NCBI GenBank assembly: GCA_028865345.1
Contig: JAGWKL010000001.1
Coordinates: 63,296-127,295, forward strand
Source: Candidatus Omnitrophota bacterium
GTDB taxonomy: Bacteria; Omnitrophota; Gorgyraeia; Zapsychrales; Fredricksoniimonadaceae
DNA length: 64,000 nt
Direction: 5' to 3'
The number at the start of each line of letters is the position of its first letter. Within the stretch, counting starts at the first letter, position 1. The position numbers and the translations under genes are program-made. The notes beneath the pieces were generated by a model. That model did not search any database. It was not told the origin of the DNA and worked only from the letters and a program-made list of their open reading frames with translations. Shown here in pieces: positions 18,990 through 63,576 of this stretch.

Positions 18990-19063
18990 CAGGCCTGGCA
19001 GGAGTCGAACCTGCAACGCACGGTTTTGGAGACCGTCGCTCTACCAATTGGAGCTACAGGCCT
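18990..19063 (-). tRNA. tRNA-Trp (anticodon CCA)
   Basis: Cloverleaf read by eye: acceptor AGGCCTG/CAGGCCT, anticodon loop CTCCAAA, T-loop GGTTCGACTCC. Confidence 0.8.
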
Positions 19064-19354: not shown

Positions 19355-19427
19355 AGCCCTCGAGCGGGATTGAACCGCTGGCCTCGTCCTTACCAAGGAC
19401 GTGCTCTACCAACTGAGCTACAAGGGC
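19355..19427 (-). tRNA. tRNA-Thr (anticodon GGT)
   Basis: Cloverleaf read by eye: acceptor GCCCTTG/CGAGGGC, D-arm GCTCAGTTGGTAGAGC, anticodon loop TTGGTAA, T-loop GGTTCAATCC. Confidence 0.8.
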
Positions 19428-35604: not shown

Positions 35605-35752
35605 GTAAATATTTTAACAGATTCCAAAAATGAAAATAGCATTATTCAAATTTTTTTGCCTTGAAACCGGTTTAAAATCCGTTGTAAAGTCCCCGTGAAG
35701 CGGCTTGCGCGCCCGGCCATCTTCAGTTATACTTTGTATACAGATAAAATCC
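35605..35752. promoter_or_regulatory. AT-rich divergent promoter region between pilM (minus) and the Flp-like Cys-rich protein gene (plus)
   Basis: 148-nt AT-rich spacer between divergent start codons. It marks the boundary between the all-minus core block and the accessory locus. Confidence 0.4.
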
Positions 35753-42001: not shown

Positions 42002-42723
42002 AAACGGCTTTTTACTTTTCGGCGGCCATAGGTTGTTATCAACATACGCCGCATGACGGCAGGGACCTGGATCTCGCTTTTGAAGGTCCGGTGCGGGATG
42101 CCCCGTGCAATGGCCAATGCACGCAAAAGTTTCTTGTCTTTCTTCAAGGCCGCGGGCACCTCCTGCGCCAATGCCAGCATGGCTTCTGATAAGAACGGGA
42201 AAATAAATTTGCACCCGTGAACCTCGGCCACGCGCAAATGAAGGGCCTTTTGCCGCCTGGCGTCCTGTAGGCGCTCCTTAAGCCTTTGCGGCCTTACTTG
42301 CAAAGCCTCATTACCAAACCACTGATCAGAACCCATGCCTGAAATCAACACGTTCCCCGCAGTCTTGGGATCGTATTTCTTGAGGGCCGCATACACGACC
42401 CCCAGGTCCAGGTCCGCCATAGGCTGCTCCGTCAAAGCGGCAAGCCCCCCAAAAGCGGACAAGAATTCCGCAGGTTTCACATGAAGGATGCAATGTTTGA
42501 TCCCTGCCTGCCGGGCGGACTCAGCGGCCCCGGCAACGGTGAGAGGGTTAAAATCGTCAAATTGCACCGTCACCGCCGTCACTTGGGCGCCGCAGCGCCG
42601 GGCCATCAACGCCATCAGCATGGAATCGAACCCGCCGCTGAACATGATCGCCCGGCGGGTGCCGGCCATCTTTCCCATGGCCGACTCCAGTGTCCGCTCC
42701 ACCAAAAAAGGAAGATCCCTCAT
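41998..42723 (-). CDS. PP-loop superfamily ATP pyrophosphatase (asparagine synthetase C-domain / QueC / LarE-like)
   Basis: A SGGFDS PP-loop close to the N-terminus. No C-terminal Cys cluster, so probably not QueC proper. Confidence 0.6.
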   Translation of the reverse strand: MRDLPFLVERTLESAMGKMAGTRRAIMFSGGFDSMLMALMARRCGAQVTAVTVQFDDFNPLTVAGAAESARQAGIKHCILHVKPAEFLSAFGGLAALTEQPMADLDLGVVYAALKKYDPKTAGNVLISGMGSDQWFGNEALQVRPQRLKERLQDARRQKALHLRVAEVHGCKFIFPFLSEAMLALAQEVPAALKKDKKLLRALAIARGIPHRTFKSEIQVPAVMRRMLITTYGRRKVKSRL

Positions 42724-45596: not shown

Positions 45597-46787
45597 ATGC
45601 GCGTCTTATTCCACTACACCCACAAGCAAACCCTCGGGCACACCACCCGCAGCATCTCTTTTGTAACAGCGCTTTGCCGCCTTAAAGCCGATGTCCTCGT
45701 ATTGCAAGGGGGCCTTGTGCAGCCTTTTGTCCGTTTCCCCTCCGGCTGCCGGGTCATGGATATCCCTTTTCCTTTTGACGCACGCACCAGTTTTCAGGCC
45801 CACGCTGTCCCTGTATCCGCAAGCCGACGCGCTCAATTTATCCTCAAAGCGGCCGCTGAATTCTGCCCTGATGTTTTCATCACCGAATTTTTCCCTTTCG
45901 GCAGATCGTCCTATTTGCCGGAACTGCTGCCTCTGTTGCGCTACCTGCGTAAAAAAGGTACCCGTATCATGGCCAGCATCGGATATCCTTTGATCATCGA
46001 CCTGGATCGTTTCAGCGACCCGAAATTCGCCGCCCTGCAAAAAGCCGTATTTGCTTTCTACGACAACTTTCTCATCCATACGCCGCAAGAGCTTGAAACC
46101 CCGTATATCCAAAAAACCATCCCCTCCGAGCCCCTGGCCCGTTCCTATGCCGCACTGATGAAGGACCTGAAGGCCCGGATCGACTATACCGGCTATATCT
46201 TCCCGGAAAAAATCATCACCGGCGATTCCTTGCGGCCGAATTCCACCGCCCCTTCCATCGTCGTCAGCCGCGGGGGCGGCGCCGTGTATCCGAAACTCAT
46301 GACCACCGCCATCGAAGCCCAGCGTCTCCTCGGGGGCGTCCATACGGTGATCGCCTGCGGTCCGGCCACGACCGCGGCGGAAAAAGCCTTGTTCACCTCC
46401 TGCCTCGATCCCCAGGACAACGGCCGGGTGGTCCTTTCGGACCTTCTGGCGGACCTTGACGACCATCTGCGCACGGCAAGGGTTTCGGTGAGCCTGTGCG
46501 GCTACAATACCTGCGTCCAATTGATGCGTTACGGGACGCCCTCGGTGATCGTCCCCTATCACAACACACTTGCCTCCAACCCGACCAATGACCAGATGGC
46601 CCGCTCCCGGTTGCTTGCCGAACGCTTCTCTGGTATCATCCTTGATTACGATACGATGACGCCGCAAAGTTTGTCCGACGCTATCAAAGAACAAATGTCC
46701 AAACCCCGCCCTGCGCCCGCCCCCCGGGACTGGTTCAACGGGGCTGAAACGGCAGCGCGTCTTGTGCTTGAAGGTAGGGCAAATTAA
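45597..46787 (+). CDS. GT-B fold glycosyltransferase (GT1/GT28-like), paralog A
   Basis: Two-Rossmann pattern and the shared block FITEFFP. It is a paralog of 61504-62721. The antisense 362-aa track ORF inside it was rejected. Confidence 0.6.
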   Translation: MRVLFHYTHKQTLGHTTRSISFVTALCRLKADVLVLQGGLVQPFVRFPSGCRVMDIPFPFDARTSFQAHAVPVSASRRAQFILKAAAEFCPDVFITEFFPFGRSSYLPELLPLLRYLRKKGTRIMASIGYPLIIDLDRFSDPKFAALQKAVFAFYDNFLIHTPQELETPYIQKTIPSEPLARSYAALMKDLKARIDYTGYIFPEKIITGDSLRPNSTAPSIVVSRGGGAVYPKLMTTAIEAQRLLGGVHTVIACGPATTAAEKALFTSCLDPQDNGRVVLSDLLADLDDHLRTARVSVSLCGYNTCVQLMRYGTPSVIVPYHNTLASNPTNDQMARSRLLAERFSGIILDYDTMTPQSLSDAIKEQMSKPRPAPAPRDWFNGAETAARLVLEGRAN

Positions 46788-47751
46788 ATTTCTTCAAAAA
46801 CCCATGATAGGCAAAGCACCCGGGGCAATGGCCCTGGGCCGCATCTTCCGCATGCCGTTGACGGACCAGATCCAGTTCCTGCGGCAATTGTCCCTGATCT
46901 CCCAGTTTCCCGGCAGGCTCCATGTAGAGGCAAGGAAAAACATTCCGGCGCGAATTAATGAAAAGGGATTTGGCCGGGGTTTCGCAGGCGCGGATGCATT
47001 TGCGGCCGCCGGCCAAAAGCACCATCATGGCCTTGACCAGGCGGTTGTCAACCCCCGCGTAATTGTCCTTTAACATGGCCTCCACCTGTCCGCGGACATC
47101 TTCAACCATGGCAGGCGTCAGGGAGGCCAGTTGGCCTGCCTGCGGCATCTCGTGGCGGTGATAGTAATCATCGACGCCGGATTCCATGATCTTGGGTGAA
47201 AACCGCGCTTTAAAGCGCCGCGCCATACGGTAAACATCGCCTAACTCGGCGTAATTCAGGCGGTTGATGGTGAATTTAAATTCCAGGATGATGTCCTTGC
47301 CGAAATGGGCGGCCAGCCACTCGATGGTTTTTAAGGATTTCCCAAAAGCCCCCGGCCCCCGCAGGCGGTCATGCACCTCTTGTCTTCCGTCGATGCTGAT
47401 CCCCATGTGCATCCCGCTCAAATCCTTGCCGTAGGCGGTCATCACGCGGCGTACGCCTTCGAAATACGCCGCGTTGCTGTAAACGCCGAAGCCCGAAATC
47501 TGGCCGCGTTGGCGGAAGAACGACATCGCTTTCAATACGCGCCCGCAATTCCTGTTGAGAAAGGGTTCTCCTCCGGTGATGGACACAAAATAAACCTCAT
47601 AACGCGCAAGCAATTGGCGCATCATGCGCACGACCAATGACGAGGACATCTCATGGCGGTCTTTTTCCGCCCATATCCCGCAGTGCTGGCAATGGAGCTG
47701 GCAGTGATTGGTGATTTCGATGGTTATATCGTTAAGCAGAGGTTTTTTCAT
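46735..47751 (-). CDS. Radical SAM protein with SPASM-like C-terminus
   Basis: CQLHCQHC, plus a C-terminal ...FPCLY...GHCPGCFAYHG. Confidence 0.8.
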   Translation of the reverse strand: MKKPLLNDITIEITNHCQLHCQHCGIWAEKDRHEMSSSLVVRMMRQLLARYEVYFVSITGGEPFLNRNCGRVLKAMSFFRQRGQISGFGVYSNAAYFEGVRRVMTAYGKDLSGMHMGISIDGRQEVHDRLRGPGAFGKSLKTIEWLAAHFGKDIILEFKFTINRLNYAELGDVYRMARRFKARFSPKIMESGVDDYYHRHEMPQAGQLASLTPAMVEDVRGQVEAMLKDNYAGVDNRLVKAMMVLLAGGRKCIRACETPAKSLFINSRRNVFPCLYMEPAGKLGDQGQLPQELDLVRQRHAEDAAQGHCPGCFAYHGFLKKFNLPYLQAQDALPFQPR

Positions 47752-48850
47752 GTTCTACAAAAGACCTGCTGGTTTCAATGACCTGCCGGGCCTTGTCCTC
47801 GCTCATGAATGAATACAAAGGAAGATGCAGGGCCGAGGCCGCATACCACGCGCTGACCGGAAAGCCCTCCTGCTGATTTCCCTTAAATACCGCCATGCGA
47901 TGCAGCGGTATGTACGCCCGCTGGGCCATGATGCCCCGGCTTTCCAGGAAATTAAAAAACTCGTCCCTGCAATCGCAGCACACCACGAAATTCTGCGCCA
48001 CGCTTTGGGTTTGCGGGGCGTCTTTGAAGATCGTCAGTCCCTCGATTGTGCCGATCTGCCGCTCATATAAGGCCTTGATCTTATGGCGGGAGGCAATGAT
48101 CTCTTTCAGGCGGGAAAATTTGACCCTCAGGGCCACCAGGTCCATCAGGGACATAGGCGCAAACCGCTGCCCCAGCTTGACAAGCTCACCGGTGTCACGC
48201 CAGTCTTCCATCCAGCGCCGGATGCGGTTGAGTTTGGAGGCGTCAGCCGTGATCATGCCCCCTCCGCCGCCGCAGGACGAGAGGGGTTTGTAGTAAGAAA
48301 AGGAGAATACGGCCATATCACCGAAGGAACCCAGCATGCGGCCTTTGTACCTGGAGCTTTCCGCCTGGCACACGTCTTCGATAAAAACGATGTTCTTCTC
48401 CCGGCAAAATTTTCCGATCCGCTCTACGTCGCACGGCCGGCCGAACATATGGGCGGCAATGACCGCCCTGGTCTTCTTGGTCACGGCCGCTTCCACGAGA
48501 CCCGGGTCCAACTGAAGGTCTTCGGCGCGCGCATCCACGGCCACCGGTGTGGCCCCGCAATAACAAACGGCCAGCGCCACGGCCTGGTAGGTCAAATCAG
48601 GGACAATCACCTCGTCGCCGGGCCCCACCCCGCAGGCCAGCAGGGCCATTTTCAAGGCATCGCTCCCGGAGTTGACGGCCAGCGCATGCTTGACCCCGAT
48701 ATACCGCGCAAATTCATTTTCAAAATCTTGCACCATGGGCTTGATATCATTCAGCCCGCTCATGGCTTTAAGGGCACGGTCCATTTCAGCCGCATACTCG
48801 CGGCTCAAGGCCTGCTCCACCAAAAGACTTTCATATCTTACGGCTGCCAT
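47732..48850 (-). CDS. DegT/DnrJ/EryC1/StrS-family PLP-dependent sugar aminotransferase
   Basis: NSGSDAL block and an SFSYYKPL lysine (PLP) block typical of the DegT family. Confidence 0.85.
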   Translation of the reverse strand: MAAVRYESLLVEQALSREYAAEMDRALKAMSGLNDIKPMVQDFENEFARYIGVKHALAVNSGSDALKMALLACGVGPGDEVIVPDLTYQAVALAVCYCGATPVAVDARAEDLQLDPGLVEAAVTKKTRAVIAAHMFGRPCDVERIGKFCREKNIVFIEDVCQAESSRYKGRMLGSFGDMAVFSFSYYKPLSSCGGGGGMITADASKLNRIRRWMEDWRDTGELVKLGQRFAPMSLMDLVALRVKFSRLKEIIASRHKIKALYERQIGTIEGLTIFKDAPQTQSVAQNFVVCCDCRDEFFNFLESRGIMAQRAYIPLHRMAVFKGNQQEGFPVSAWYAASALHLPLYSFMSEDKARQVIETSRSFVEHEKTSA

Positions 48851-49857
48851 GCAGTTGCCCCCATGATCTTATGATCAATGGCCTCGATTTGTTCGCACAG
48901 ATCGATATAAGCCCGCACCCTCTCTTCATAGCGGCGGCCCGGCGGGGTCTTGACCGCCTGCAGGGCATTGAAATTGCTGATGCTGCGGTAACTGCAGTTG
49001 GGATGGCCGGCCAGATGCTCTTGCAGCGCCTTAAAATAAGGCCCGGCCTGCGCCAGGGGCTCTCCCGACGGCCCTTGGCTGAAATCCATCAGATAAAGGC
49101 ACTCGCGCACCTCCTCGGGAAAGGACAAAAGCAGCCAATTGGCCAGCACCTTGCCGCTGGGCACGGACAGCAGGTCCCAGGCCCCGCGGGAAGGCTCGCT
49201 GTATCCGCGGCCGATCAAACCATGCCTGCCCTCTTTCAACTCCCAGGCGCAGGCCCGGCGGTATTGGTCTAAAAAAACGCCGGCCGCTGCTTTGTCCCAG
49301 ACTTCCAGAAAAGCCGGGTGCACTTCAATGGATTTCAGGCCCATGGCCGCCAAATATTTTAAGTTATCAAACAATTTGGCCGCGCCTGAAGGGTGCACCA
49401 CCATGGTGGTGGTATACGGCCCCTGGGAACGCAGGACCAGATTGACGCCCCGCACGATGTCCGCGTAATAATAAGGGCCTATCCCCGGCCGGTTGCGCTG
49501 GGTGGTGGTTTCATCTCCGTCGATACCGACCTCCAGATTGACCCCGTGGGTCAGGAAAAATTCCATCAGCTCCTCATTGAGCAGGGTGGCATTGGTCTGG
49601 ACGGACATATACCGGTTCAGGCCCTGGCCGGAGATCTCCGCAATCATTTCTTTAAGCCGTGCGGCATCCATCAAAGGCTCTCCCCCGGAGAAAACAAATT
49701 CCATCGGGGCCATCGGACGGACGAACTTAAGGATATTCTCGAATGTTTTTAAAGCGATGACCTGGCTTTGGGTCCGGTATTTATAGAAGCAATACCCGCA
49801 CCCCAGATTGCAGCGGTCGGTGAAGAAGAGCCAAACATGGTTGATCTTTTTGATCAT
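48838..49857 (-). CDS. Radical SAM protein
   Basis: CNLGCGYCFYKY. Internal start MIKKINHVWLFFTDRC gives an ATGA overlap with the upstream gene. Confidence 0.8.
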   Translation of the reverse strand: MIKKINHVWLFFTDRCNLGCGYCFYKYRTQSQVIALKTFENILKFVRPMAPMEFVFSGGEPLMDAARLKEMIAEISGQGLNRYMSVQTNATLLNEELMEFFLTHGVNLEVGIDGDETTTQRNRPGIGPYYYADIVRGVNLVLRSQGPYTTTMVVHPSGAAKLFDNLKYLAAMGLKSIEVHPAFLEVWDKAAAGVFLDQYRRACAWELKEGRHGLIGRGYSEPSRGAWDLLSVPSGKVLANWLLLSFPEEVRECLYLMDFSQGPSGEPLAQAGPYFKALQEHLAGHPNCSYRSISNFNALQAVKTPPGRRYEERVRAYIDLCEQIEAIDHKIMGATAWQP

Positions 49858-50897
49858 GTTCCGTATTTTTTGACCCCCAGGGTCAGGTGGGTCCTTGTCA
49901 AGAACCGCAGGATATCGTTGATGGCCCATGTGTTCATATATTGAGTGCCCATCATGGAGTTCATCAGTTCAAAATTATGGCAGACAAATTCGCGGTAAGG
50001 CAGTTTGGCGTGCTCCCGGTGCACTTTCTCGTGTGCCGTCCGGTAAAAGGCCAGCACCTCAGGCCTGAAACGGCCGACGTCATCCCAGATATTGAATTCC
50101 ATCCGTTTGTTTTCCGGAAGGCAAAGAAAAGGGTCTCCCCCCAAAAGATATCCCGGCGGATGCAGGCTTAAGTCCATGTACCCGGGAGCGATCCATTCAT
50201 TGTCCTCATTGGCATACATGGTCCTGCGCAGTTCGGGCCTGCGCGCCAATTTCAGATAATTTGTTTTAAAAAGCGCCACGGTTTCCGGCGTCCAGGGCAT
50301 GAACGCCGCCGGAGTGACATCCACATGGGGGATGCCCATTTCCCTGAGAAAATCCAGGCCCTGTTCCATGTGATCGACTTCTTGAGGGTGCACCGTCATC
50401 GTCGAACCGCAGCCGATGCCGGCCTGAACACAGGCACGGATGGTTTCCGTCAATTTCTTGAAGGACGCCGGTTTTAAGCCGCAGCGGTGGCGCAGGGTGG
50501 CCTCGGAAGCCCCGTCGATGCCGAACTCCAGGGTGACGCCCAGCCGGCGCAGTTCAATGATCGAATCGCGGTCTATCAACAGTCCGTTGGTCTGGATATG
50601 CAGGGAGGTGTCCTTGAAGCGCCCGTGGGCCTCATTCAAGATCCTAAAAAGGTTCTCCTTGGCCAAAAACGCCTCCCCGCCGGAAAAAATCAATGTGGAC
50701 GGGGCGCCTGTTTCCTTTTCGAACAACAGAAAAAGTTTTTCCACGGCGTCCAATGATATTTCCCGGCCGTGCATGTGCCGAAAGAAGCAATAATCGCAAT
50801 GCAGGTTGCAGCGTTCGGTCACATAGATCCAGGTGTAATGGACCTTGAATTTACTGTGCTTTTGTTCTGGCGTCGATAAAGTACCTGATTTTTCCAT
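49854..50897 (-). CDS. Radical SAM protein
   Basis: CNLHCDYCFFRH. It is a tandem paralog of 48838-49857. Confidence 0.8.
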   Translation of the reverse strand: MEKSGTLSTPEQKHSKFKVHYTWIYVTERCNLHCDYCFFRHMHGREISLDAVEKLFLLFEKETGAPSTLIFSGGEAFLAKENLFRILNEAHGRFKDTSLHIQTNGLLIDRDSIIELRRLGVTLEFGIDGASEATLRHRCGLKPASFKKLTETIRACVQAGIGCGSTMTVHPQEVDHMEQGLDFLREMGIPHVDVTPAAFMPWTPETVALFKTNYLKLARRPELRRTMYANEDNEWIAPGYMDLSLHPPGYLLGGDPFLCLPENKRMEFNIWDDVGRFRPEVLAFYRTAHEKVHREHAKLPYREFVCHNFELMNSMMGTQYMNTWAINDILRFLTRTHLTLGVKKYGT

Positions 50898-52011
50898 TCA
50901 AGGTCCTCGGGAGGGTCCCTTCATGTTTTCTGAGTTCAACGCAATTGTCCAATCCCAGCGCTTTGACGACAACCTGGCACACGGACGGCTTGATGCGGTC
51001 GGCCGCCACGTTAATAATAAGTTTATCATAATATTGAAGCCGGTGCTTATCAATGAGAAAGAAGAAACACGGGGTTCCCAAACAATTGTTGACGGTACGG
51101 ATGAGGGCTTCTTTGTCCACCACCACACCGTTGACAAGCAAGCTCTCCTGCGTCCTTCCCAACACCTTGATCGCCAACGCGCCGCGCCGGTCCAAAAGCT
51201 CGACACGGTCGCCCAAACGGTAGCGGACAAAGGGCATGCTGGTGTTGTTGAGGTCCGTCACCAACAAATCGCCGGTTCCCGTTGGTGACGCCTCACCGGG
51301 CTGCGCCAGTACCTCCAGCAAAAGCCCTTGGGCAAAGACCCTCATAGAGTCATCGCCGGCCTTGAGGGCGAGGGCCAACCCTGAAATTTCCATGGCCCCG
51401 TAGTGGTCGTGGATGCTTACTCCCCCCATCTTTTCCATCCGCCGCCGGTAGTCCGGCCATAAAGGCTCGCCGTTGACCAGGCAGCGCCGGATAGAATGCC
51501 GGCGGCCCAATACCGAAAACAGGTCAAACAACTGGTTGGTATACGCGTTGACAACCGCGGGTTTCAAAAGCCTGACGAGACGGGCCGCTTCGTGAACTTT
51601 CTCCGGGCTGCTGATAGGGCCAAGCGGAATGACGCCCGCGCCAGCCGCCTTAAAAGCCGTCTCCATCATGCGCCCGCCGCTGTTTAGTTCATAAGAACAT
51701 AAATTCAGGCACAGCACCCCCGGCTTGATGCCGGCATGGCGGTACATCATGACCAAACGGCCCAAATGGGCCTCATACGCCTGCCGGGAATGGGCTATGA
51801 TCATCCTCGAGGAAGTGGACCCTGAGGTGGCCGTGATATTAAAGGCATGCCGCAAACCCCCGGAGGCGTACGCCTTGATATCTTCCCTGCTTGTGACGGG
51901 AAGCTGTTGAAAATCCCGCCACGAACGCAAAACACGGCGGCGTCCCGGGGAGGGAAAACTTTTGAGCAACTGCGAAACTTGTTTTAACGCCTGCGCATTA
52001 AACATCATCAA
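50851..52011 (-). CDS. Adenylate-forming enzyme, phenylacetate-CoA ligase / coenzyme F390 synthetase (CapK)-like
   Basis: ATSGSTSSRMII matches the ANL superfamily motif A1 (T/S-S/G-G-S/T-T-G). The ~386-aa size fits the PaaK family. Confidence 0.6.
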   Translation of the reverse strand: MMMFNAQALKQVSQLLKSFPSPGRRRVLRSWRDFQQLPVTSREDIKAYASGGLRHAFNITATSGSTSSRMIIAHSRQAYEAHLGRLVMMYRHAGIKPGVLCLNLCSYELNSGGRMMETAFKAAGAGVIPLGPISSPEKVHEAARLVRLLKPAVVNAYTNQLFDLFSVLGRRHSIRRCLVNGEPLWPDYRRRMEKMGGVSIHDHYGAMEISGLALALKAGDDSMRVFAQGLLLEVLAQPGEASPTGTGDLLVTDLNNTSMPFVRYRLGDRVELLDRRGALAIKVLGRTQESLLVNGVVVDKEALIRTVNNCLGTPCFFFLIDKHRLQYYDKLIINVAADRIKPSVCQVVVKALGLDNCVELRKHEGTLPRTLNGKIRYFIDARTKAQ

Positions 52012-52052: not shown

Positions 52053-53129
52053 TCATGACAAGCCTTGAGAATTCCTGTCCTTGCCATGCGCCGTCAGCGG
52101 AGCCTCCGTGGCTTTGCACAATAAACAAGGGCGCCAATAGTTCTTGGAAATATCCATGACAGGGCTGAAATCTTCTTTCCCGGAAATGATCTCATCAAAG
52201 CTTTGTGATAATAAATTACCGAAAAAAAACGGGTCCTGATCAATGGGCAGGCCGTTGACGGCGCGGAAGGGATTATAACAGCCGTAACAATCCCCGTTGC
52301 CGTCGATAAACAACACGTATTTATGCACCCCGCAGGTGTAACAACAACCGGCATCTGTGCCGCGGCCCTCTGAAAAAGGCCTCAACCTCTCCAGAAGCTT
52401 CTCGGTCTTCTTTATAAAATCCTGCAGGTTCGTACAATCCCATAAGTCTTTACGGCGGCTGTTGAGTTTTGCCAGCAGTAAGACCTTGTGCAGCCCTTCA
52501 TAATCGAATCCAAGGTGCTTGGGGGTCTTGATATAATTGTGCACATGCTGATAAGAAACATATAATTTCCTGCCCCCTAATTCGGCAGCGAGCAAACGAT
52601 TGACCTCCTGGGGGAATGTAAATGCGTCTTTCAATGATTGTGCCGTAACGACATAATTGGTCCGCAGGGTTATGCCCAGGCCGTTTTCCAGAATGCCGCG
52701 AAGGACGTTTTTGACCGATCCGATGCAGCGGTCAAAAGAAAATCCCGGCGAGGGTTGGTGGATCCTGGCCAGGCCCTCCTGGTCCACGGCGTTCAAATTG
52801 ATTGTCAACGTCCGTATAAAGGGCAGGACCTCGAGAATGGCCTTGTCATTAAGGGCATTGGACAACAGCTCGATCTTATAACCAAGCTCATGGGCCATGG
52901 CCACCACCTTGGTGAATGCCGGGTTCAAAGTCGGTTCACCCCTGCCGCCTATTTCCAGCACCCGGAATCCATGCGCGTAAGCCGACAAGAGGACATCGTT
53001 CCAGCGCTGCAAGCTCATGGAATCTTTATCGCTTAAGGGATGCTCTTCTTTGACATAGCCATACATGCAAAATGTGCAGTGATATTGGCAGCCATCGTAA
53101 AGCGAGACGAGCAATCTTTTATCTTCCAT
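52053..53129 (-). CDS. Radical SAM protein with SPASM-like C-terminus
   Basis: CQYHCTFCMYGY, plus a C-terminal AGCCYTCGVHKY...GDCYGCYNPF. Confidence 0.8.
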   Translation of the reverse strand: MEDKRLLVSLYDGCQYHCTFCMYGYVKEEHPLSDKDSMSLQRWNDVLLSAYAHGFRVLEIGGRGEPTLNPAFTKVVAMAHELGYKIELLSNALNDKAILEVLPFIRTLTINLNAVDQEGLARIHQPSPGFSFDRCIGSVKNVLRGILENGLGITLRTNYVVTAQSLKDAFTFPQEVNRLLAAELGGRKLYVSYQHVHNYIKTPKHLGFDYEGLHKVLLLAKLNSRRKDLWDCTNLQDFIKKTEKLLERLRPFSEGRGTDAGCCYTCGVHKYVLFIDGNGDCYGCYNPFRAVNGLPIDQDPFFFGNLLSQSFDEIISGKEDFSPVMDISKNYWRPCLLCKATEAPLTAHGKDRNSQGLS

Positions 53130-54312
53130 ACGCCGCCTCCTGCCTTTTGTCACCGTAAAAAACAAGCCCCTCGTCCTCAAAGAAAGATTGCCGGGTGAAC
53201 CATCCCTTGCGCAATCCTTCGCGATAAAGCGCCGTACCGGGCAATATCACAAGCCGGTTGGTGGATACTTTGACGTCCGGGCCCAATTCCTTAAGCGCCG
53301 ACAATGTTAAATTCCGGTCCTGCTCAGTTTCTCCGGGGTTATCGACCGTAATCATGACCTCCACCTTCAGGCCGGCTTCTTGGGACCAACGCACGGCATT
53401 CAATATGTCCTGCCGGCTGTACCTTTTCCCGAGGCGATGCAAGACCGCGGGAGAAGCAGATTCTACTCCAAAGTAAATCTCCCGGCAAGCGGAACGTCCC
53501 ATTAAGAAAAGCATTTTCTTGTTCACTGAGCTCACACAAGCCGAACAGGCCCAGAAAAACTGTCCTTTGATCCGGCGCATCCCCGCGCATATGGCCGTAA
53601 GACGTTTCTGATCCGCCGCAAAATCTTCATCCAACAATTCGATCTCCCCGGCCTGATTATTCTCCACGAGATCCCTGACCTCATCCAACACATTGGCCAC
53701 GCTGCGATACCGCAATCCCCCTCCCCAATGGACGTTACGGTCGCAAAATACGCAATGATGCTGGCACCCGCGGGCGGTCATGAGAAATGCACGGGGATGC
53801 CCCTGGTTATAAAAATAAGGGCCGATAAAAGGGATCTCATCCAAATTAGGGAAAGAATGTTTTACGGTATGGATGATCGTTCCCTCGTGCCTATAAGATA
53901 TGTTGGGGACCGTTTTTAACGGTGAACGCCCTTCTAATACGGCGGGAATTACGAATTCCGGATCATCCTTGACCACGATGTCCGCCAGCCCGCTTAAAAG
54001 GATCTCGTCGGAGAACACGGAAGCAAAGGGGCCGAAAGCAATGATAAGACGGGGAGGTTTCGGCAATCGGCGGGCATTTTCCATATGGAGAAAAGCGTTC
54101 GCCTTATTCCCAAAGAATATCGCGTAGCAGCAGACCTCGGCTGGGCCCTCCCGGCGGGGAGAATCTTTCCCATTCTTTGCCGCCAAGTTCACGCATCGGG
54201 CATCCCATCCCTTTTGGAGAAGCGCCAGGAATACGCCTCCAAAGCTATACCGGTCTAAAGGGGGGCAACCGCAGGCCGGCCGCGCATAATCCGCGAAGAT
54301 GACTTCGATCAA
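53119..54312 (-). CDS. Class B-like radical SAM protein (N-terminal B12-binding-type domain + radical SAM)
   Basis: A ~190-aa Rossmann-like N-terminal domain followed by ARGCQHHCVFCD. Confidence 0.7.
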   Translation of the reverse strand: MIEVIFADYARPACGCPPLDRYSFGGVFLALLQKGWDARCVNLAAKNGKDSPRREGPAEVCCYAIFFGNKANAFLHMENARRLPKPPRLIIAFGPFASVFSDEILLSGLADIVVKDDPEFVIPAVLEGRSPLKTVPNISYRHEGTIIHTVKHSFPNLDEIPFIGPYFYNQGHPRAFLMTARGCQHHCVFCDRNVHWGGGLRYRSVANVLDEVRDLVENNQAGEIELLDEDFAADQKRLTAICAGMRRIKGQFFWACSACVSSVNKKMLFLMGRSACREIYFGVESASPAVLHRLGKRYSRQDILNAVRWSQEAGLKVEVMITVDNPGETEQDRNLTLSALKELGPDVKVSTNRLVILPGTALYREGLRKGWFTRQSFFEDEGLVFYGDKRQEAAYGR

Positions 54313-54440
54313 AGGATCTCCTTTTCTTCTTTAGCACCTTTTGGGGCAAATCCAAGGCCGGCGCATCTAGGCCTATTGCCGCCCTAATAAAGCATACTAT
54401 AAGCTGCGTTCCTTTGCCGTACTTTGTCTCGCCGCAAACG

Positions 54441-55322
54441 TCACGCCCCTGCCTTCCTGGCCTTGCGCAAGATCAGATCCAATGCCGGAGTTTTAAGGCC
54501 CTGACGCCTGGCCTGGCGCACAAGCGCCCCTGTTATGTAATCAAGTTCCGTCGGCCGGCCTGCCCGCCTATCCTCGAACAAGGTCCCGCGGTGAGCGATC
54601 CCCTTCAAATCACCCTGGCGCACCCTCTTTATTATTTTCAAAGGATCAAAAGCCAGGCGGACCCTTAAAGCACGGGCTACGGCCTTGCCTTCTTCGACAG
54701 CCTGACGCACCGATTTCCAGACGCAAGCATCTGTCCTTAAAACATCATATCCCCTGCCTTCGATCACAGGCAACGGGTTCATCACCGCGCTGAAGATCAA
54801 CTTGGCCCAGGTGATCCTTGAAGATCGGGACACCAAAGAAGCCTTTAAACCGGCATCGGACAAGAGGCGGCAAAACCAGCCGGCCGCTTGTTTGTGCCGG
54901 TCGCATGCCAAAAAGAACCTTCCCTGATAATGAAAAACCGGCTTGCCTTTCACATTACCGACGGCGGAAGTGGTCACTCCCCGCACCAAAGCCGCTTCGG
55001 GCAGTCCATGGGCGATCCGGGGAAGGTCCAGAAGCCCATTTTGCAAGAAGAGCACCCGCCGGGCAGCCCCTATGATTTTCAACCCGGCCAGCGCCCGCGC
55101 GGCGTCATAGCATTTCGTTGCCACGATAACCCCGTCGAACGATCTTCCCCTGAGGCCGGCAGGGTCATGAAAAACCGGCACCTTGACCCTGGCCCGGGGA
55201 CAAGGGTCGAGGACCGTCACCGACGCGCAAGGCCCGAGGCGAAGGGCAAGGGCCCCTCCCAATGCCCCGCATCCGACGATCAACAACTGCCGTCTTTGCC
55301 CTGTGCGTCTAAACGATTGCAA
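54441..55322 (-). CDS. 2-dehydropantoate 2-reductase (PanE/ApbA)-family NAD(P)-dependent oxidoreductase
   Basis: N-terminal LLIVGCGALGGALALRLG dinucleotide-binding motif and a PanE-like length of 293 aa. Confidence 0.65.
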   Translation of the reverse strand: MQSFRRTGQRRQLLIVGCGALGGALALRLGPCASVTVLDPCPRARVKVPVFHDPAGLRGRSFDGVIVATKCYDAARALAGLKIIGAARRVLFLQNGLLDLPRIAHGLPEAALVRGVTTSAVGNVKGKPVFHYQGRFFLACDRHKQAAGWFCRLLSDAGLKASLVSRSSRITWAKLIFSAVMNPLPVIEGRGYDVLRTDACVWKSVRQAVEEGKAVARALRVRLAFDPLKIIKRVRQGDLKGIAHRGTLFEDRRAGRPTELDYITGALVRQARRQGLKTPALDLILRKARKAGA

Positions 55323-55334
55323 AAGCAGACTCCT

Positions 55335-56720
55335 TCAAACTCCTGCCATGGACAGGACACTGCTGTTCAATTGTTCCAATGTCCGGCTTTTCAATATCAA
55401 TTTGGTCAAATCCCCTCCCTGATAGCGCAGCAGCCGGTCATAATCTCTGATGACTTTCTGCTGCGGCCTGGATTTGAGAAAAGTCACCAACTGCTGCATC
55501 AGGGCAAGGCTGTCCTCCGCTTCCGTCATGTACCAAAAATCAAAGAAAGGTTCGCGCAAACACACCTGCAGGATATCGCGCATCAACGCCGGGCTTATCT
55601 CCATCTGGGAGGGAAGGAAATTCATAATGAACATAAAGGGGACAATATAATTAGCTGCCGCAGGGGATCTATGGCGCCTGTTGAACAGTATCTGCCAGCC
55701 GATATTCGGTTCAACACCCTCTATGGCCCCCACCCGAAGCACCACTTCGAGGTTACGGCGCAGGGCCGAAGGGGTTTCCCCCCGTATCCCCATCATAAAA
55801 GAAAGATGGATTTCCGTTTCTTTCCGGCGGTACTTCAGGAATTCCGCCAGTCTTTTGGGGGAGTTTTCCCCCTTGCGGATCCGCCTTAACAGGGACAAAT
55901 CCACATGCTCCACGCCGAAGAAAATCGTCCGGCATCCTGCCGCGGTCATCCGGCCATAAATATCGGGGTCGATATCGTCCAACCTGGTCTTGCAGCGCCA
56001 GGTCACGCCGGGGTTTTCCCGTTGCAGCCGCGCCAGGAAATCTTCGGTAAAGGGCCTGTCCGAAATAAAATTGGGTTCGCAGAATTCAAAATAAGTTTTT
56101 CCGCTCTTTTCGGCAAAACGCATCCACCGCAGGACCCTGTCCGGTGAATGTCTGGTTATCGCCGGGGAACCTTCAAAAGGCAGGCGGTTGTAACAAAAAG
56201 AACAGTTGGCCCAGCAGCCGAAGGTCAGGTATTCCCAAAAACGGTAATGCTCGTACCCGTATCGCTTGAGCGACGCCCCAAGACCTTCAAAGAAAGCGTC
56301 CTCGGTCAGCCGGGGATTCCCGATATGCCGGAGAATATATTCGTCGATATTCAACGGGCTGAAAACAATGTTGTCCCTTTGGATCAACGAGGTTTCATAC
56401 AAAGAAAAATAAGGAGAACAAATAATGATCTTTTTATCCTTTAACAAAGGCAGATAAAGGTAGAGAAAGATGAGGGACTCGATCTTGGGATAATTATTAT
56501 GGCAAGCCATGGAAACAAGGACGGTGTCTTCCTTGATGCCGGACAGCACATGCATCAACGATGAACGAAAATCAGGGTCCGGGGAACGTTCGATATCATA
56601 AAATCCGTAAGGGTGGCCCAATGCATCAAGGAGGCTCAGGGCCTTCATCAGCCCAACCGGCAAGAGTTCATGATGTTTGGGAATGATCTGAAGGATCGCA
56701 AGCGAACGGCCTTTCTTCAT
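55335..56720 (-). CDS. Radical SAM protein with large N-terminal domain (class B/B12-binding-like candidate)
   Basis: A ~200-aa N-terminal domain followed by GCWANCSFCYNRL (CX3CX2C). Confidence 0.65.
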   Translation of the reverse strand: MKKGRSLAILQIIPKHHELLPVGLMKALSLLDALGHPYGFYDIERSPDPDFRSSLMHVLSGIKEDTVLVSMACHNNYPKIESLIFLYLYLPLLKDKKIIICSPYFSLYETSLIQRDNIVFSPLNIDEYILRHIGNPRLTEDAFFEGLGASLKRYGYEHYRFWEYLTFGCWANCSFCYNRLPFEGSPAITRHSPDRVLRWMRFAEKSGKTYFEFCEPNFISDRPFTEDFLARLQRENPGVTWRCKTRLDDIDPDIYGRMTAAGCRTIFFGVEHVDLSLLRRIRKGENSPKRLAEFLKYRRKETEIHLSFMMGIRGETPSALRRNLEVVLRVGAIEGVEPNIGWQILFNRRHRSPAAANYIVPFMFIMNFLPSQMEISPALMRDILQVCLREPFFDFWYMTEAEDSLALMQQLVTFLKSRPQQKVIRDYDRLLRYQGGDLTKLILKSRTLEQLNSSVLSMAGV

Positions 56721-57595
56721 CGCGCCCTCCTGGTTTTTTCAAGTACAAGGTAACCGCTGTCAGACTCTCCTAAATCAACTTTTAAACCCAACGGGCGCGC
56801 CTGCTGAGCAAGCACGCGGCCGGGAGAAACCCCGCCGCCCATAAAATCATTCCCCGGGTCAAGATAACCGATGATCCGCCCCCCCGGACGTAACAGACCC
56901 GCCATTCCTGCCAGCTTTGCCCGATAGTACTCCAGAGGTTCCTGCCAAAAAATATCCGACAAATAAATCACATCCAATGATCTTTTTCTAAAATAATCCG
57001 GGCTGTCAAATATGTCCATTTGAGCAAACCTCAAAGATCCAAGCCGCGCGCGCACTCTGGCTACAAACGACGGGTCTTTTTTCCAAAACGGTCCGGATTC
57101 CGGGTTTAGAACCATTTCACCCGCAGTAATGAACGAATACTTTTCAGCCAGTCCGGCGGGGGGAAGGATCCTTTCCCCTGTGGCCTTATTGTACAAATAC
57201 ATCTGCTGCAAGTGCCGGAAATTCCTTTTGATCGCTGTGATTTGACCGTGATGCGCCCGGTGCAATTGCTCAAAAGAAGGCATCATATTGTTTTGTTTTA
57301 TAAAAAAGGCCTTGGCAGCGAGCACAAAAAGTTGGGCACAATTAAGATCCACCGCCCACAAAGTCCCTTTCCTGCACCCGGCGCCGAGCATCGTCAATGC
57401 CTGATCGCCGCCGCCGCAGCAGGCCAAAATGTTCGGGCAATCTCCGGCGGCGGTGATCAGCGCCGCAAGCCTGGGGAGAGGTTCGGTAGAATCGAAATAC
57501 CGGACAAAACCCCCGTAACGCTTTAACGTGCTGTTGATCCCCTGAGGCTTGATCACAGCGTTCCTTTTCATCATCAAAGACGGCCCCTCCTTCAA
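56717..57595 (-). CDS. DUF3419/BtaA-like SAM-binding protein (possible 3-amino-3-carboxypropyl or methyl transferase)
   Basis: ILACCGGGDQALTMLGAG...VDLNCAQLFVLAAK resembles the DUF3419 signature (I.SaGdN.L...aVDlNpaQ). Confidence 0.45.
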   Translation of the reverse strand: MKEGPSLMMKRNAVIKPQGINSTLKRYGGFVRYFDSTEPLPRLAALITAAGDCPNILACCGGGDQALTMLGAGCRKGTLWAVDLNCAQLFVLAAKAFFIKQNNMMPSFEQLHRAHHGQITAIKRNFRHLQQMYLYNKATGERILPPAGLAEKYSFITAGEMVLNPESGPFWKKDPSFVARVRARLGSLRFAQMDIFDSPDYFRKRSLDVIYLSDIFWQEPLEYYRAKLAGMAGLLRPGGRIIGYLDPGNDFMGGGVSPGRVLAQQARPLGLKVDLGESDSGYLVLEKTRRAR

Positions 57596-57620: not shown

Positions 57621-59333
57621 TCATTTTTTCTTCAGGCAAAAATATTGTCCGAAAACATCTGTATTCTGAAACATTTTTAAAAACACGACAATGTTGCGTT
57701 TGGCCTGCGTGGAGAGGCCGGAAGTCCTTTGGGCAAGCCTCGTGAGTTCCTGGCCGGATAAAATTTTTCCGCTCAATTGTTCAAAGAAGCGGATCGACAG
57801 CGGGTCCTTGACCGTAAGCGTAAGGCCCTTGCGGCTGGAGCCTAATTTAAGTTCCCCGGCAACGCAGACGCATTGGTCCGGATGAAAATAATACAGGCGG
57901 TCTTCTCCGGAAGGCACCTGTCCCTTCAATTCGATGAACCGTACGATTTTCCAGAAATAGGCCCTGTCCTTGTTGGTTCTTAATTTCAGCTCGGCCAAGC
58001 GGTATAAATCTGAAAAAGAAAGCTTTTTGTCCACAACATGTTGTTCAAAGACCTGCCGCACCTTGGCGTCGGCGATGCGGACCAAGCGCCCTAAGGAACC
58101 TTTGCTCACATAATAAATTTTGTTGGCCTTCTTGAGACGGTCGGCGGCGCTTATGCCGCGGGGCAAAAAAGTATCCTCGCTTTCCTGTTGAAGATGCTTG
58201 GCCCTTTCCGTGATGGGGGAAGGCTTGAAATGCCTGGAAAACCCGCCCCGTAAAATCGTCCGGTTGATCCTTTCATTGACACCTTTATTAAACACGCTTC
58301 CGGAATACCAGGTGCCTATCCCCTCGACCAGCGTGTTGATCAGCGCATTGCAGTTTCTGTCATACCATTGGTGGTCGAATTGACCTTTGTTTTTATTAAG
58401 ATTATCGGCAACGGTGAGCGCTTCCAGCATGGCCACCCCTGAACCGGCCGAATAGACGGGATCGGCAAAACAACAGGCGTCTCCAATGAGGATCCAATTG
58501 GCACCAGTGCATTGCCGGCTGCGCCTGGAATAATTAGGGCGGCAATGGACCTCTTTCATATAAGGCGCAATGGCCCTGCCGGGGTTTCGGGCAATGGACG
58601 TCAGCCGCCAACAGGCGGCAGCATGCTTTCCGGTGTATTCAAAAAGCTCTTTCTCGGACAGAGGTTCGCCCCGATGCAGAAGACCCATGCTTAAAATTGA
58701 ACTGCGGTAAATAGGGATTTGCCATATCCAACTGTCCGCGGCGATCTTATTGATCACCGTCCAATTGGCCCAAGAGTCAGCCTCCCGGTTTAAACTGTCT
58801 ATGGCCCAATAACTCCATTGCGCCTTCATGCCTGCAAACTGGTCGACAGGCGTCACCAGGTTGAGCTTATTGGCGAGGACCATGGCCGGACCGGAACAGT
58901 CCAAAATATATTTTGTAAACCGGTATGTGTTGTGGTCCGTCTTAACGGTGTTCTTTGCCAAATCAATATCAAGAATGGTTTCCTGGCGGATATCGACGGA
59001 GAGTTCCTTGGCAAGCAGTTCTTCAATTTCCCGGCGCTCACAATGAAAGGCAAACGACCTGCCCAATGCCGTAGGAAAATGGCTCGCATACCGGCCATGG
59101 TAGGAATCACAGAAAATCGTCCCCAGCTTTCTGGTGAAGCTTTTCATCTTCACGATTTTAGGGATCAGGCTGATCAAGCCGGGGTCTTCATTGATGAGAG
59201 TAGGAACATGCGATTCCCCTATTTTGTATTGGAAAGGTTTTTTGTCGATGAGGATGGTCTTGCCCAGCAGCTTGTATTTCAAGCCGATCCCGGCAAACCC
59301 GGCGCCTATGATCAGATAATCGCATGTCACCAT
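57621..59333 (-). CDS. Flavin-dependent halogenase (tryptophan-halogenase family) with ~180-aa C-terminal extension
   Basis: GAGFAG FAD motif, K-IGES lysine block, WIWQIP (WxWxIP) and FADPVYSAGSG. Start chosen at MVTCDYLIIGAG. Confidence 0.7.
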   Translation of the reverse strand: MVTCDYLIIGAGFAGIGLKYKLLGKTILIDKKPFQYKIGESHVPTLINEDPGLISLIPKIVKMKSFTRKLGTIFCDSYHGRYASHFPTALGRSFAFHCERREIEELLAKELSVDIRQETILDIDLAKNTVKTDHNTYRFTKYILDCSGPAMVLANKLNLVTPVDQFAGMKAQWSYWAIDSLNREADSWANWTVINKIAADSWIWQIPIYRSSILSMGLLHRGEPLSEKELFEYTGKHAAACWRLTSIARNPGRAIAPYMKEVHCRPNYSRRSRQCTGANWILIGDACCFADPVYSAGSGVAMLEALTVADNLNKNKGQFDHQWYDRNCNALINTLVEGIGTWYSGSVFNKGVNERINRTILRGGFSRHFKPSPITERAKHLQQESEDTFLPRGISAADRLKKANKIYYVSKGSLGRLVRIADAKVRQVFEQHVVDKKLSFSDLYRLAELKLRTNKDRAYFWKIVRFIELKGQVPSGEDRLYYFHPDQCVCVAGELKLGSSRKGLTLTVKDPLSIRFFEQLSGKILSGQELTRLAQRTSGLSTQAKRNIVVFLKMFQNTDVFGQYFCLKKK

Positions 59334-59387
59334 ACATTTGCCTCCTGTAACTGTGGACGGTTTAAGGCCTGAAGCTGCCCGGAACAT

Positions 59388-59583: not shown

Positions 59584-60483
59584 ATGGCCATGACCGCTTT
59601 GGGGGTGATCATCCTGTGTGTCGGTGTATTAACCACGTTTACCGATCTTAAGAACAAAAAAATATATAATCTCCACTTGGGCCTTGGCGCCCTCATGGGC
59701 CTGCTGGCCGTGGCCTACACAGCTCTCAAAGGCCAGGAACACGTGCTTTTTCATCTTGTCGACGGCGCGGTTGCTTTTGGCGTCGGGTTTCTCCTGCACC
59801 GCTCTTCACTTTGGAAAGGCGGCGACGCCAAACTCTTTGCGCTCTATGCGTTTCTGATGCCGCCGCCGGAATTCAAACTGATCATCTTTCCGCAAGTGAC
59901 GGATCTGTTCGCCTGTTCCTTCATTGCAGGCACCATCCTGCTCATACCTCTTCTTATTAAAAATATTATCATAAATCGCGGGACAATTGCAACCCAGGCC
60001 TTTTCCCCGGCCAAAAGGCGCGGCCTCGGGTCGGCCATGGGGACCTTGATTTTCTATTCCTGGGCGCTGTTTCCCATCTATTACCTGGCCCGGCTTACGA
60101 ACCCCGTGGTCATTCTGTTTATCCTTTATTGCTTCTTCAATTGGGGCTATTCCACCAGGGAAATCAAGAAAGATGAAGTGGCGGCGCACAGAAAAAGATT
60201 TTATCTTGAGCTGTTGATCGTATTTTTGGTCGGGTTTCTCAGCCGCCTTTGGCTGGCGCCGGATTCCCTTGATGGGCCCTCCCTTTTACGCTATGGTCTT
60301 ATGATCGTATTTTCCTGCACCGTGTCTGTCTGCATCCACACCGTCCTGGAGCATGTCAAAGAATACCGTGACCGGGTGCCGTTTGCGCCGTTGCTATTTC
60401 TGGGATGCCTGCTGAGTTATACGCCTTTTTTGACATATCTGACGCGCCTGTTGGTCCGGTGGAACATCTTTTTCTACCGCTGA
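59584..60483 (+). CDS. A24-family type IV prepilin peptidase (TadV/CpaA/FlaK-like, no N-methyltransferase domain evident)
   Basis: Polytopic membrane protein with a GGDAKLFA second catalytic Asp motif and an Asp in the first cytoplasmic loop (FTDLKN). Confidence 0.75.
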   Translation: MAMTALGVIILCVGVLTTFTDLKNKKIYNLHLGLGALMGLLAVAYTALKGQEHVLFHLVDGAVAFGVGFLLHRSSLWKGGDAKLFALYAFLMPPPEFKLIIFPQVTDLFACSFIAGTILLIPLLIKNIIINRGTIATQAFSPAKRRGLGSAMGTLIFYSWALFPIYYLARLTNPVVILFILYCFFNWGYSTREIKKDEVAAHRKRFYLELLIVFLVGFLSRLWLAPDSLDGPSLLRYGLMIVFSCTVSVCIHTVLEHVKEYRDRVPFAPLLFLGCLLSYTPFLTYLTRLLVRWNIFFYR

Positions 60484-62787: not shown

Positions 62788-63576
62788 CTACTGACCGGGT
62801 ATGGGAGATCCAGCGCCGGGTGCATTGCATGCATCACGCATTTCGCTGTTGACAATGTCCGAACAACTGCCCGTCCCTTGGGCAACCCCAAACCAGGTAT
62901 AAAAATCTTTTGATTCCTGTTCAGGGGTCCGTACGTCTGCGAGGATACGGCATCCGGACAGCGCCCTATACCAGTTAAAATTCCAATTAGGCCCATAGGG
63001 CCCGACATAATCTTTGATATATTCTTCACAGGAGGAGGCTGAACCCTTTAAAGCCAAAACATATGCTATCTCCGCCACGGTATCACCTTCATCGTCTTTA
63101 GAAAAATCCGGGACATGCGTAAAAAATGCCTGCCTTGTGCCGGCACCGGGGGAATTGAGGACAGGGCATATCAGCGAAGCCAGCTCTTCCTGCGTCTTGA
63201 GCGGATATTGACTAATTTGACTGTAGAAGCACTCGGTGGGTTCCTTGCCTGTATTGCCTTGACAGGCAGTGTAAGCGCAAATCCATCGACGGATGCCTTT
63301 GGCCTTGCTTAAACAGCCTTCATCCCCCCCGCAGAGGGATAAGCCGCCCTTCGCCGCCTGAAACGCATTAAAATGCAATTGCTCCATGAGGGCCTGCCTG
63401 GGATCAACCGTCGCCGCAGGTATAGAATCGAGATCAATGGCGGGAGACATCGGGGGCTGGCTCTGGTTATCGGCGTTTTGTTGGGCCCCGGCAACACCTA
63501 CCCCGCCGGCGGCCAAAGACAGCAGCATAAAAAGGGCAAGGCCCCTTAACCTAATATGAAGTATGTGTCGTAACAT
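62788..63576 (-). CDS. Secreted cysteine-rich hypothetical protein
   Basis: N-terminal signal peptide MLRHILHIRLRGLALFMLLSLAAGGVGVAGAQQ and more than 12 Cys. Confidence 0.4.
   Translation of the reverse strand: MLRHILHIRLRGLALFMLLSLAAGGVGVAGAQQNADNQSQPPMSPAIDLDSIPAATVDPRQALMEQLHFNAFQAAKGGLSLCGGDEGCLSKAKGIRRWICAYTACQGNTGKEPTECFYSQISQYPLKTQEELASLICPVLNSPGAGTRQAFFTHVPDFSKDDEGDTVAEIAYVLALKGSASSCEEYIKDYVGPYGPNWNFNWYRALSGCRILADVRTPEQESKDFYTWFGVAQGTGSCSDIVNSEMRDACNAPGAGSPIPGQ

Follow-up and report, generated by a model that had tools for sequence, protein, structure and literature searches.

Radical SAM, PanE-family and DUF3419-superfamily proteins of a putative sugar-tailoring module in an Omnitrophota type IV pilus locus

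BtaA, a strong member of the DUF3419 family (PMC6642084), moves the aminocarboxypropyl group of S-adenosylmethionine (SAM) onto diacylglycerol (PMC10685587). AprD4, a radical SAM 1,2-diol dehydratase, acts together with an NADPH reductase, AprD3 (PMC5461906); it falls within the B12-radical-SAM sequence network but does not bind cobalamin (2026 review, PMC12931638). Here we describe four adjacent genes encoding two radical SAM enzymes, a PanE-like reductase and a DUF3419-like transferase in a 64,000-nucleotide stretch of a Candidatus Omnitrophota genome (assembly GCA_028865345.1, contig JAGWKL010000001.1, positions 63,296 to 127,295 of the forward strand), hereafter the window. Omnitrophota, which are uncultured and ultra-small, show traits of host dependence, and attachment is thought to be mediated by structures on their surface, type IV pili especially (PMC10066038).

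The four genes may constitute a lineage-restricted tailoring module in a radical-SAM-rich glycan-assembly island that lies within a type IV pilus locus. Sugar tailoring is the reading we put first, at a probability of roughly 0.35. The substrate is most likely a sugar, probably an aminosugar on polyprenyl phosphate with transfer in the periplasm, because of the genomic context described below. The identities of the proteins are solid; the chemistry and the substrate are what we infer.

The four proteins and their operon

All four open reading frames (ORFs) lie on the minus strand at 53119-57595 in a single operon, with exactly the boundaries given in the initial annotation of this DNA. In the order of transcription they encode proteins of 292 (56717-57595), 461 (55335-56720), 293 (54441-55322) and 397 amino acids (53119-54312). 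The stop codon of the 292-aa gene and the start codon of the 461-aa gene overlap by 4 nt (ATGA), indicating translational coupling; the DUF3419-like gene, initially placed after the module, precedes the 461-aa gene in the direction of transcription. Minus-strand genes are tightly packed from 59387 down to 46735. One plausible -35/-10 pair is found upstream of the operon's first gene (59497-59469), and promoter and terminator scans gave counts not above shuffled expectation. Contigs of two Candidatus Omnitrophota metagenome-assembled genomes, GCA_028866185.1 and GCA_028871075.1, match the window.

The 292-aa protein belongs to the SAM-binding transferases of class I. Its AlphaFold2 (AF2) model (predicted local distance difference test (pLDDT) 89.6) shows a class I methyltransferase fold that includes an insertion; in the PDB Foldseek matched the model only to generic class I methyltransferases, Pfam gave weak Methyltransf_25/11 matches, and the family profile run against the PDB returned noise. 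The family comprises 64 proteins, all about 280 aa long, the few with a named source coming from Omnitrophota. Invariant or nearly so among them are the segments ACCGGGDQ, AVD(I/L)NPAQLFVLAAKA, MDIFD and YLSDI.

The initial description of this protein as DUF3419/BtaA-like holds as remote superfamily homology but not at the Pfam threshold, since PF11899 scores 13.2 bits (E = 0.05, residues 55-116) and the gathering cut-off of 28.2 is not reached. Across the family, 24 of 36 members match PF11899 at E <= 1. An exhaustive hidden Markov model (HMM) search of 1.84 billion representatives gave only 11 proteins at E <= 1e-30, of which most are complete family members and a few are fragments, along with about 100 weak relatives; PF11899 was matched by 62 of the 66 remote relatives scanned (best 2.8e-70). 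In a profile comparison with 11 full-length DUF3419 proteins, all of which match PF11899, hhalign aligned residues 31-247 of the family to 4-312 (99.4%, E = 6.6e-22), a match that spans nearly the whole 292-aa protein, in which the central insertion is shorter. Each of the seven residues invariant in the DUF3419 set is identical and conserved in the family: E38, G63, D64, D83, Q88, S213 and the arginine of GGR. The relationship is thus real but distant, and the protein is a compact, divergent member of the DUF3419 superfamily. The aminocarboxypropyl (ACP) transfer first proposed for it is an analogy with BtaA and is not supported as it was stated: the enzyme may transfer either an ACP or a methyl group, methyl being equally possible.

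The 461-aa protein contains the sequence GCWANCSFCYN, a canonical CX3CX2C motif at Cys169/173/176, and the 397-aa protein carries TARGCQHHCVFCD, the same motif at Cys183/187/190. Both proteins pass the radical SAM domain PF04055 (gathering cut-off 29.5), the former with 59.9 bits (E = 4e-16) and the latter with 65.9 bits (E = 6e-18), in agreement with their first assignment. The regions ahead of the cluster motifs, thought to be 190-200 aa long, measure about 165 and about 180 aa, respectively. The two proteins are 24% identical, in the core only, and their N-domains are unrelated by sequence, which rules them out as recent paralogues. Searched in isolation, both N-domains returned only noise from PDB sequences.

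In the AF2 model of the 461-aa protein (pLDDT 87.6), a five-stranded Rossmann-like N-domain (7-154) is followed by the radical SAM barrel and a helical C-terminal domain. The N-domain adopts a predicted B12-binding-like (flavodoxin/Rossmann) fold, as had been anticipated for structure prediction, and Foldseek superposes the model on TsrM, CysS, MgmA and TokK. The family is small: a search among 5.8 billion clusters gave 47 proteins at E <= 1e-3, of which about 38 are true members, sharing 61-82% identity apart from a single protein at 42%. Nine distant radical SAM proteins (27-32% identical) make up the rest, seven of them with PF02310. None of 25 family members matches PF02310 at E <= 1, hhalign of the N-domain against B12 domains gives 0.9% (E = 0.06), and a segment of about 24 aa with a GEGE motif, present in the PF02310-bearing relatives, is missing from the family. 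The core of the family is closest to AprD4. The best NCBIfam alternative, HpnJ (TIGR03471), scores 48.9 bits against a cut-off of 577.6. Orthology with AprD4 was considered and ruled out, the AprD4 model (NF033070) giving 48.6 bits against a cut-off of 500 and the cluster motif being CX3CX2C, not CX3CX3C.

Several N-domain residues are strictly conserved in the 461-aa family: His16-His17, ACHNNYPK (Cys73, His74; residues 73-79) and CSPYFSLY (Cys101; residues 101-108). In the predicted structure these residues lie at, or immediately beyond, the C-terminal ends of strands 1, 3 and 4. This strand edge is the binding place of cobalamin or of an auxiliary iron-sulfur cluster in related enzymes, and judging from the model the conserved histidines and cysteines could form an unrecognised metal or cofactor site.

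The 397-aa ORF begins at a TTG codon (54312), preceded at a distance of 5 nt by a Shine-Dalgarno sequence, AAGGAG, read at 54318-54323 on the minus strand. The public annotation instead chooses an internal ATG and calls a protein of 321 aa (12637-13602 of a matching contig, L001). We take the long ORF to be right because of this ribosome-binding site and because it is covered to 98% by about 70 homologues, which measure 395-405 aa, are 54-73% identical and come without exception from Omnitrophota. The shorter call drops about 40% of the B12-type domain, which may be why the deposited name is just 'radical SAM protein'.

PF02310, one of the two models put forward at the outset as a check on the radical SAM proteins (the other being TIGR04072), matches neither of those in the window even at E = 10, so that family-wide scans and profile-profile comparison were needed; it is matched by 13 of 22 members of the 397-aa family (best 1e-5). 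Profile comparison of the 397-family N-domain with the N-domains of PF02310-bearing relatives points the same way (hhalign 98.9%, E = 3e-17). A search of the PDB with the family profile gave MgmA (4.8e-21), OxsB (1.3e-18, the match taking in the cobalamin domain) and AprD4 (1.7e-16). NCBIfam models for HpnJ (1e-29; 102.4 bits against the same cut-off of 577.6), PhpK, TIGR04072 and HpnR (from residue 31) all match far under their cut-offs, and the AprD4 model gives 41.1 bits. The GEGE of the PF02310-bearing relatives is xDPE in this family, and in the alignment the protein lacks the C-terminal tail of about 80 aa found in canonical relatives. On this evidence the 397-aa protein is a genuine, divergent class-B-type radical SAM enzyme, and it is likely to use cobalamin.

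These results bear on the suggestion that both radical SAM enzymes are cobalamin-dependent class B proteins, acting as C-methyltransferases or in rearrangements, while the 292-aa protein transfers an ACP group as BtaA does and the PanE-like enzyme reduces a keto group. The two-domain layout is indeed present in both, and cobalamin is a fair expectation for the 397-aa enzyme. The 461-aa enzyme has a B12-like fold, but its cobalamin dependence is doubtful: its N-domain gives no B12 sequence signal, and the relative nearest to it, AprD4, is cobalamin-free. A class-B-like architecture does not, then, imply the cofactor for both proteins. Neither cobalamin genes, suggested earlier as something to look for, nor a cobalamin riboswitch or other RNA element (at gathering threshold or E <= 1) was found within the 64-kb window, and across the phylum cobalamin biosynthesis is no universal trait, fewer than 75% of Omnitrophota genomes having it (PMC10066038). 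The sub-threshold DUF3419 match of the 292-aa protein and its shortness relative to BtaA-type enzymes also count against the suggestion, which we consider unlikely as a whole.

Between the two radical SAM genes lies that of the 293-aa protein, whose assignment to the PanE/ApbA family stands: it passes both PF02558 (47.0 bits, cut-off 22.2) and PF08546 (76.8 bits, cut-off 22.7). All of its PDB matches are ketopantoate reductases, at about 1e-12, and it keeps the GxGxxG motif, the catalytic lysine of WAKL and a TE.DY motif. The equivalog model for 2-dehydropantoate 2-reductase, TIGR00745, gives 120.1 bits, under its cut-off of 141.35. By sequence, then, this is an NAD(P)H-dependent ketoreductase of the PanE/ApbA family but not a PanE equivalog; its orthologues are 39-46% identical across loci.

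Gene linkage across related loci

We compared 26 related loci: six from exact protein look-up (L001-L007 less the 3.3-kb L003), eight from species genomes and 12 of 15 returned from metagenomes. Some are redundant, L012 being the L006 contig and L014 the L004 contig, with L026 mirroring L005; the window's own 461-aa protein is found exactly in L001 and L002. The loci with a named source are all from Omnitrophota, some of them carrying the depositors' label 'uncultured Planctomycetales', and the 461-aa family occurs in only 7 of 185,579 species genomes.

In all 20 loci that include sequence upstream of the 461-aa gene, the 292-aa gene directly precedes it, the stop and start codons usually overlapping. 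After the 461-aa gene comes the PanE-like gene in 12 of 18 informative loci, a PaaK-like ligase gene in two and that of a flavin adenine dinucleotide (FAD) protein in one. In L023 the reductase gene follows only after a second DUF3419-like copy (11359-12200), a paralogue 46% identical to the 292-aa protein. The usual order is 397 - SPASM radical SAM - 292 - 461 - PanE - PaaK-like - radical SAM - radical SAM - DegT - (radical SAM) - radical SAM, an operon that faces a GT28-like gene. The 397-aa and SPASM genes belong to the same operon as the 292- and 461-aa genes in most long loci; the SPASM gene accompanies the 397-aa gene and, elsewhere, the 292-aa gene. Two radical SAM genes flanking PanE, as first described, are therefore a feature of the window but not of the related loci, and this order, with a reductase gene between two B12-type-looking radical SAM genes, is a local rearrangement.

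In the window the 397-aa gene is followed, on the same strand, by a radical SAM/SPASM gene (52053-53180; a 375-aa ORF, probably 358 aa, with PF04055 and PF13186) and by a PaaK/DVU_1553-like adenylate-forming ligase (50851-52011; NCBIfam NF045666 5e-19, PaaK 6e-17). The ligase is the conserved gene downstream of the 461-aa and PanE-like genes in related loci. Pfam, NCBIfam and synteny then identify, within 46735-50897 on the minus strand, two radical SAM proteins (347 and 363 aa), a DegT/DnrJ/EryC1 sugar aminotransferase (372 aa; 273 bits) and a further radical SAM protein (338 aa). The first gene of the operon in the window (57621-59387, minus strand) encodes a 588-aa FAD-dependent halogenase/monooxygenase-like protein (Trp_halogenase 22.9 bits, CmlS-like 3.6e-17). 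Among 17 loci longer than 3 kb this gene is seen only in L001/L002, L016, L017 and L022, each time at a different position.

The recurring order 461 - (PanE) - PaaK bears on another interpretation, in which the 292- and 461-aa enzymes would modify a small 2-keto acid, the PanE-like enzyme would reduce it to a 2-hydroxy acid and the PaaK-like ligase would adenylate it, for amide formation with an amine made by DegT to give an N-acylated aminosugar. PanE/ApbA enzymes classically reduce 2-keto acids, in keeping with the ketopantoate reductases that make up the PDB matches. An adenylate-forming enzyme needs a carboxylate, and DegT would supply the amine. The order is kept in most loci and PaaK directly follows the 461-aa gene where PanE is absent; because the order is conserved and PanE dispensable, this interpretation has real weight. 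In the window, however, the reductase gene stays with the 461-aa gene and two inserted genes separate it from the ligase. For an AprD4-like enzyme to work on a keto acid would be without precedent here, neither an acyl carrier nor a transferase was identified, and the idea comes from gene context alone. We judge it improbable, if clearly worth keeping in view.

A radical-SAM-rich island beside type IV pilus genes

Ten ORFs passing PF04055 lie between 37850 and 61556 (about 24 kb), within an island of about 27 kb. Such a density of radical SAM genes beside glycosyltransferases is unusual. An eleventh radical SAM protein of 470 aa, with an HxsD-like gene before it, is encoded just past the end of the window (1077-2923 in L001). 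The aminotransferase, glycosyltransferases and deacetylases of this context fit the tailoring setting initially proposed. Besides the DegT protein, the island encodes an ArnC-like glycosyltransferase of family GT2 (9e-35), a YdjC deacetylase (Pfam 209 bits; HpnK-like, 170 bits), a GT-C/PMT_2 transferase, a DUF2334/polysaccharide deacetylase, two GT28-like proteins, an asparagine-synthase-like ATP-pyrophosphatase and an APH-like kinase. The GT2 and YdjC-family genes, at 40413-42214 on the minus strand, overlap by 4 nt.

The best named matches of the YdjC-family deacetylase and the 397-aa protein, HpnK and HpnJ, echo the logic of hopanoid HpnI/K/J, with scores under the cut-offs. They lead to a possible role in lipid head-group tailoring, in which the YdjC/HpnK-like enzyme would remove the acetyl group from a lipid-linked N-acetylglucosamine, the HpnJ-like 397-aa enzyme would rearrange the sugar, and the BtaA-like enzyme would alkylate a hydroxyl group of a lipid. 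HpnJ is the top NCBIfam match of both radical SAM enzymes of the module, HpnK that of the deacetylase, the GT2 gene adjoins the YdjC gene, and BtaA does act on diacylglycerol (PMC10685587). Yet HpnJ reaches 102 of the required 577.6 bits and HpnK 170 of 232.6, the GT2 protein is ArnC-like rather than HpnI-like, and the window holds no hopanoid or other lipid-synthesis genes. Lipid tailoring is therefore highly unlikely in our view. Membership of an HpnI/HpnK/HpnJ-type hopanoid module was itself ruled out, given scores far under the cut-offs and the ArnC-like GT2.

Type IV pilus genes directly flank the island: those for the PilQ secretin, PilO, a weakly matching PilN and PilM lie at 31600-35604 on the minus strand, and a T2SSF/PilC gene is found just past the window end in L001. 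Inside the island, and conserved in related loci, is a 299-aa polytopic membrane protein with a Peptidase_A24 (prepilin peptidase) domain (59584-60483, plus strand). A 384-aa Cys-rich ORF read from the sequence at 35705-36859 (plus strand), with no Pfam match, is pilin-like: it has a prepilin-type N-terminus, MRKNG|QSIIEYILIAILVILAI, when read from an internal methionine, followed by a region of about 340 aa rich in Cys, Ser, Thr, Asn and Pro. This protein might accept the island's glycan or be a target of the radical SAM enzymes. At 62788-63576 (minus strand) is a 262-aa ORF with a signal-peptide-like N-terminus, many cysteines and no Pfam match. The left 30 kb of the window consists of housekeeping genes, with two tRNA genes (18990-19063 and 19355-19427, minus strand) between a ribosomal-protein/RNA-polymerase region and a TyrRS/S1 housekeeping block.

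Should the radical SAM enzymes have a ribosomally made substrate, for instance the Cys-rich pilin-like protein, the 397-aa enzyme could methylate carbon atoms of a protein as MgmA does. That protein glutamine C-methyltransferase gives the 397-aa family its best PDB match; several neighbouring radical SAM proteins have PapB/ranthipeptide-type matches, and the HxsD-like and radical SAM genes just beyond the window, the pilin-like ORF and the prepilin-peptidase-like protein are of a kind with such a function. All these matches are far under their family cut-offs, however, no gene for a small precursor peptide was recognised, and DegT, the deacetylases, GT2, GT-C and the PanE-like reductase point to sugar chemistry. 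Modification of a protein or peptide accordingly seems very unlikely.

A proposed pathway and its relation to known systems

If the module tailors a sugar, as we favour, the 461-aa enzyme would act without cobalamin, its 5'-deoxyadenosyl radical abstracting the carbinol hydrogen from a sugar-type substrate and turning a diol or amino-alcohol into a ketone through dehydration or oxidation, in the way of AprD4. The PanE-like enzyme would reduce that ketone, a role like that of AprD3, for a net deoxygenation or epimerisation. Using SAM, the DUF3419-like enzyme would place either a methyl or a 3-amino-3-carboxypropyl group on a heteroatom of the same intermediate. C-methylation, or else an HpnJ/OxsB-type rearrangement, would fall to the 397-aa enzyme, which probably depends on cobalamin, together with its SPASM partner. 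The product would be an aminosugar-derived unit, processed on by the PaaK-like ligase, the DegT aminotransferase and further radical SAM enzymes, and the ArnC-like GT2 and GT-C transferases would export it on polyprenyl phosphate to a periplasmic acceptor.

Several observations weigh against this pathway. The AprD4 score of the 461-aa protein is not only far below the cut-off but a tie with HpnJ, and the family motif GCyakCsFC differs in spacing from GCPYPCRFYC of AprD4 in the 6fd2 alignment. Foldseek places the cobalamin enzyme TsrM slightly above AprD4 for the 461-aa model, so the fold alone is no argument for excluding cobalamin. The reductase gene is missing after the 461-aa gene in 6 of 18 loci, PaaK directly following in two, and the reductase is therefore not an obligate partner. 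Its likeness to AprD3 would be one of role, and enzymes of the PanE family classically act on 2-keto acids, not keto-sugars. Finally, we identified neither a nucleotide-sugar 4,6-dehydratase nor a dedicated nucleotidyltransferase in the island.

The annotation of these proteins as divergent, phylum-restricted variants of known enzyme kinds and superfamilies is well supported, and their wider meaning is what we infer from it. If the locus does make a pilus or surface glycan, it would represent a new type of sugar tailoring. In addition, one operon combines a radical SAM enzyme that has a true B12 domain with another that has a B12-like fold alone, a contrast useful for predicting cobalamin dependence from sequence. 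To our knowledge the chemistry of BtaA is the only known chemistry of the DUF3419 family, and a compact relative could extend it beyond betaine lipids. More speculatively, the 292-aa enzyme and a cobalamin-free 461-aa enzyme, whose genes are always paired, might together perform a new two-enzyme chemistry, for example aminocarboxypropylation coupled to radical rearrangement, at the core of an Omnitrophota-specific pathway of ten radical SAM enzymes that builds an unprecedented glycan, extensively tailored by radical chemistry, on type IV pili or on the Cys-rich pilin-like protein; we regard this as quite improbable.

Compared with BtaA and other DUF3419 proteins, its nearest relatives among the 1.84 billion representatives, the 292-aa protein shares the motifs GGGDQ (for SxGDN), AVDxNPAQ, LSDIF and PGGR. 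A shortened central insertion leaves it about 100 aa smaller (292 aa, compared with about 350-415 aa), and unlike BtaA it has neither a BtaB partner nor a lipid context at the window locus. The 293-aa protein has both Pfam domains and all three motifs of the PanE/ApbA ketopantoate reductases; it differs from them in its sub-threshold TIGR00745 score and in being encoded in a tailoring operon with no pantothenate context.

Relative to the AprD4/AprD3 pair of apramycin C3'-deoxygenation, the 461-aa protein is just 18% identical to AprD4 and the N-domains have no detectable sequence similarity, while the reductase here is of the PanE family and absent in a third of loci. Set beside the class B enzymes MgmA, OxsB, TsrM, HpnJ and PhpK, the 397-aa family matches MgmA and OxsB and has an N-domain homologous to the PF02310 type. 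Unlike them, it has xDPE in place of GEGE and no C-terminal tail, the GEGE segment is deleted in the 461-aa family, and no equivalog model is approached by the window proteins.

At the level of the whole island, the DegT aminotransferase, ArnC-like GT2 and deacetylases recall the Arn polyprenyl-phosphate aminosugar pathways (ArnB/C/D/T). The GT-C/PMT_2 transferase, in an island adjoining pilMNOQ and a pilin-like gene, recalls GT-C pilin glycosylation of the TfpW type. What sets the island apart from both is the ten radical SAM genes interspersed in it, an arrangement for which we know of no counterpart in any Arn or pilin-glycosylation locus.

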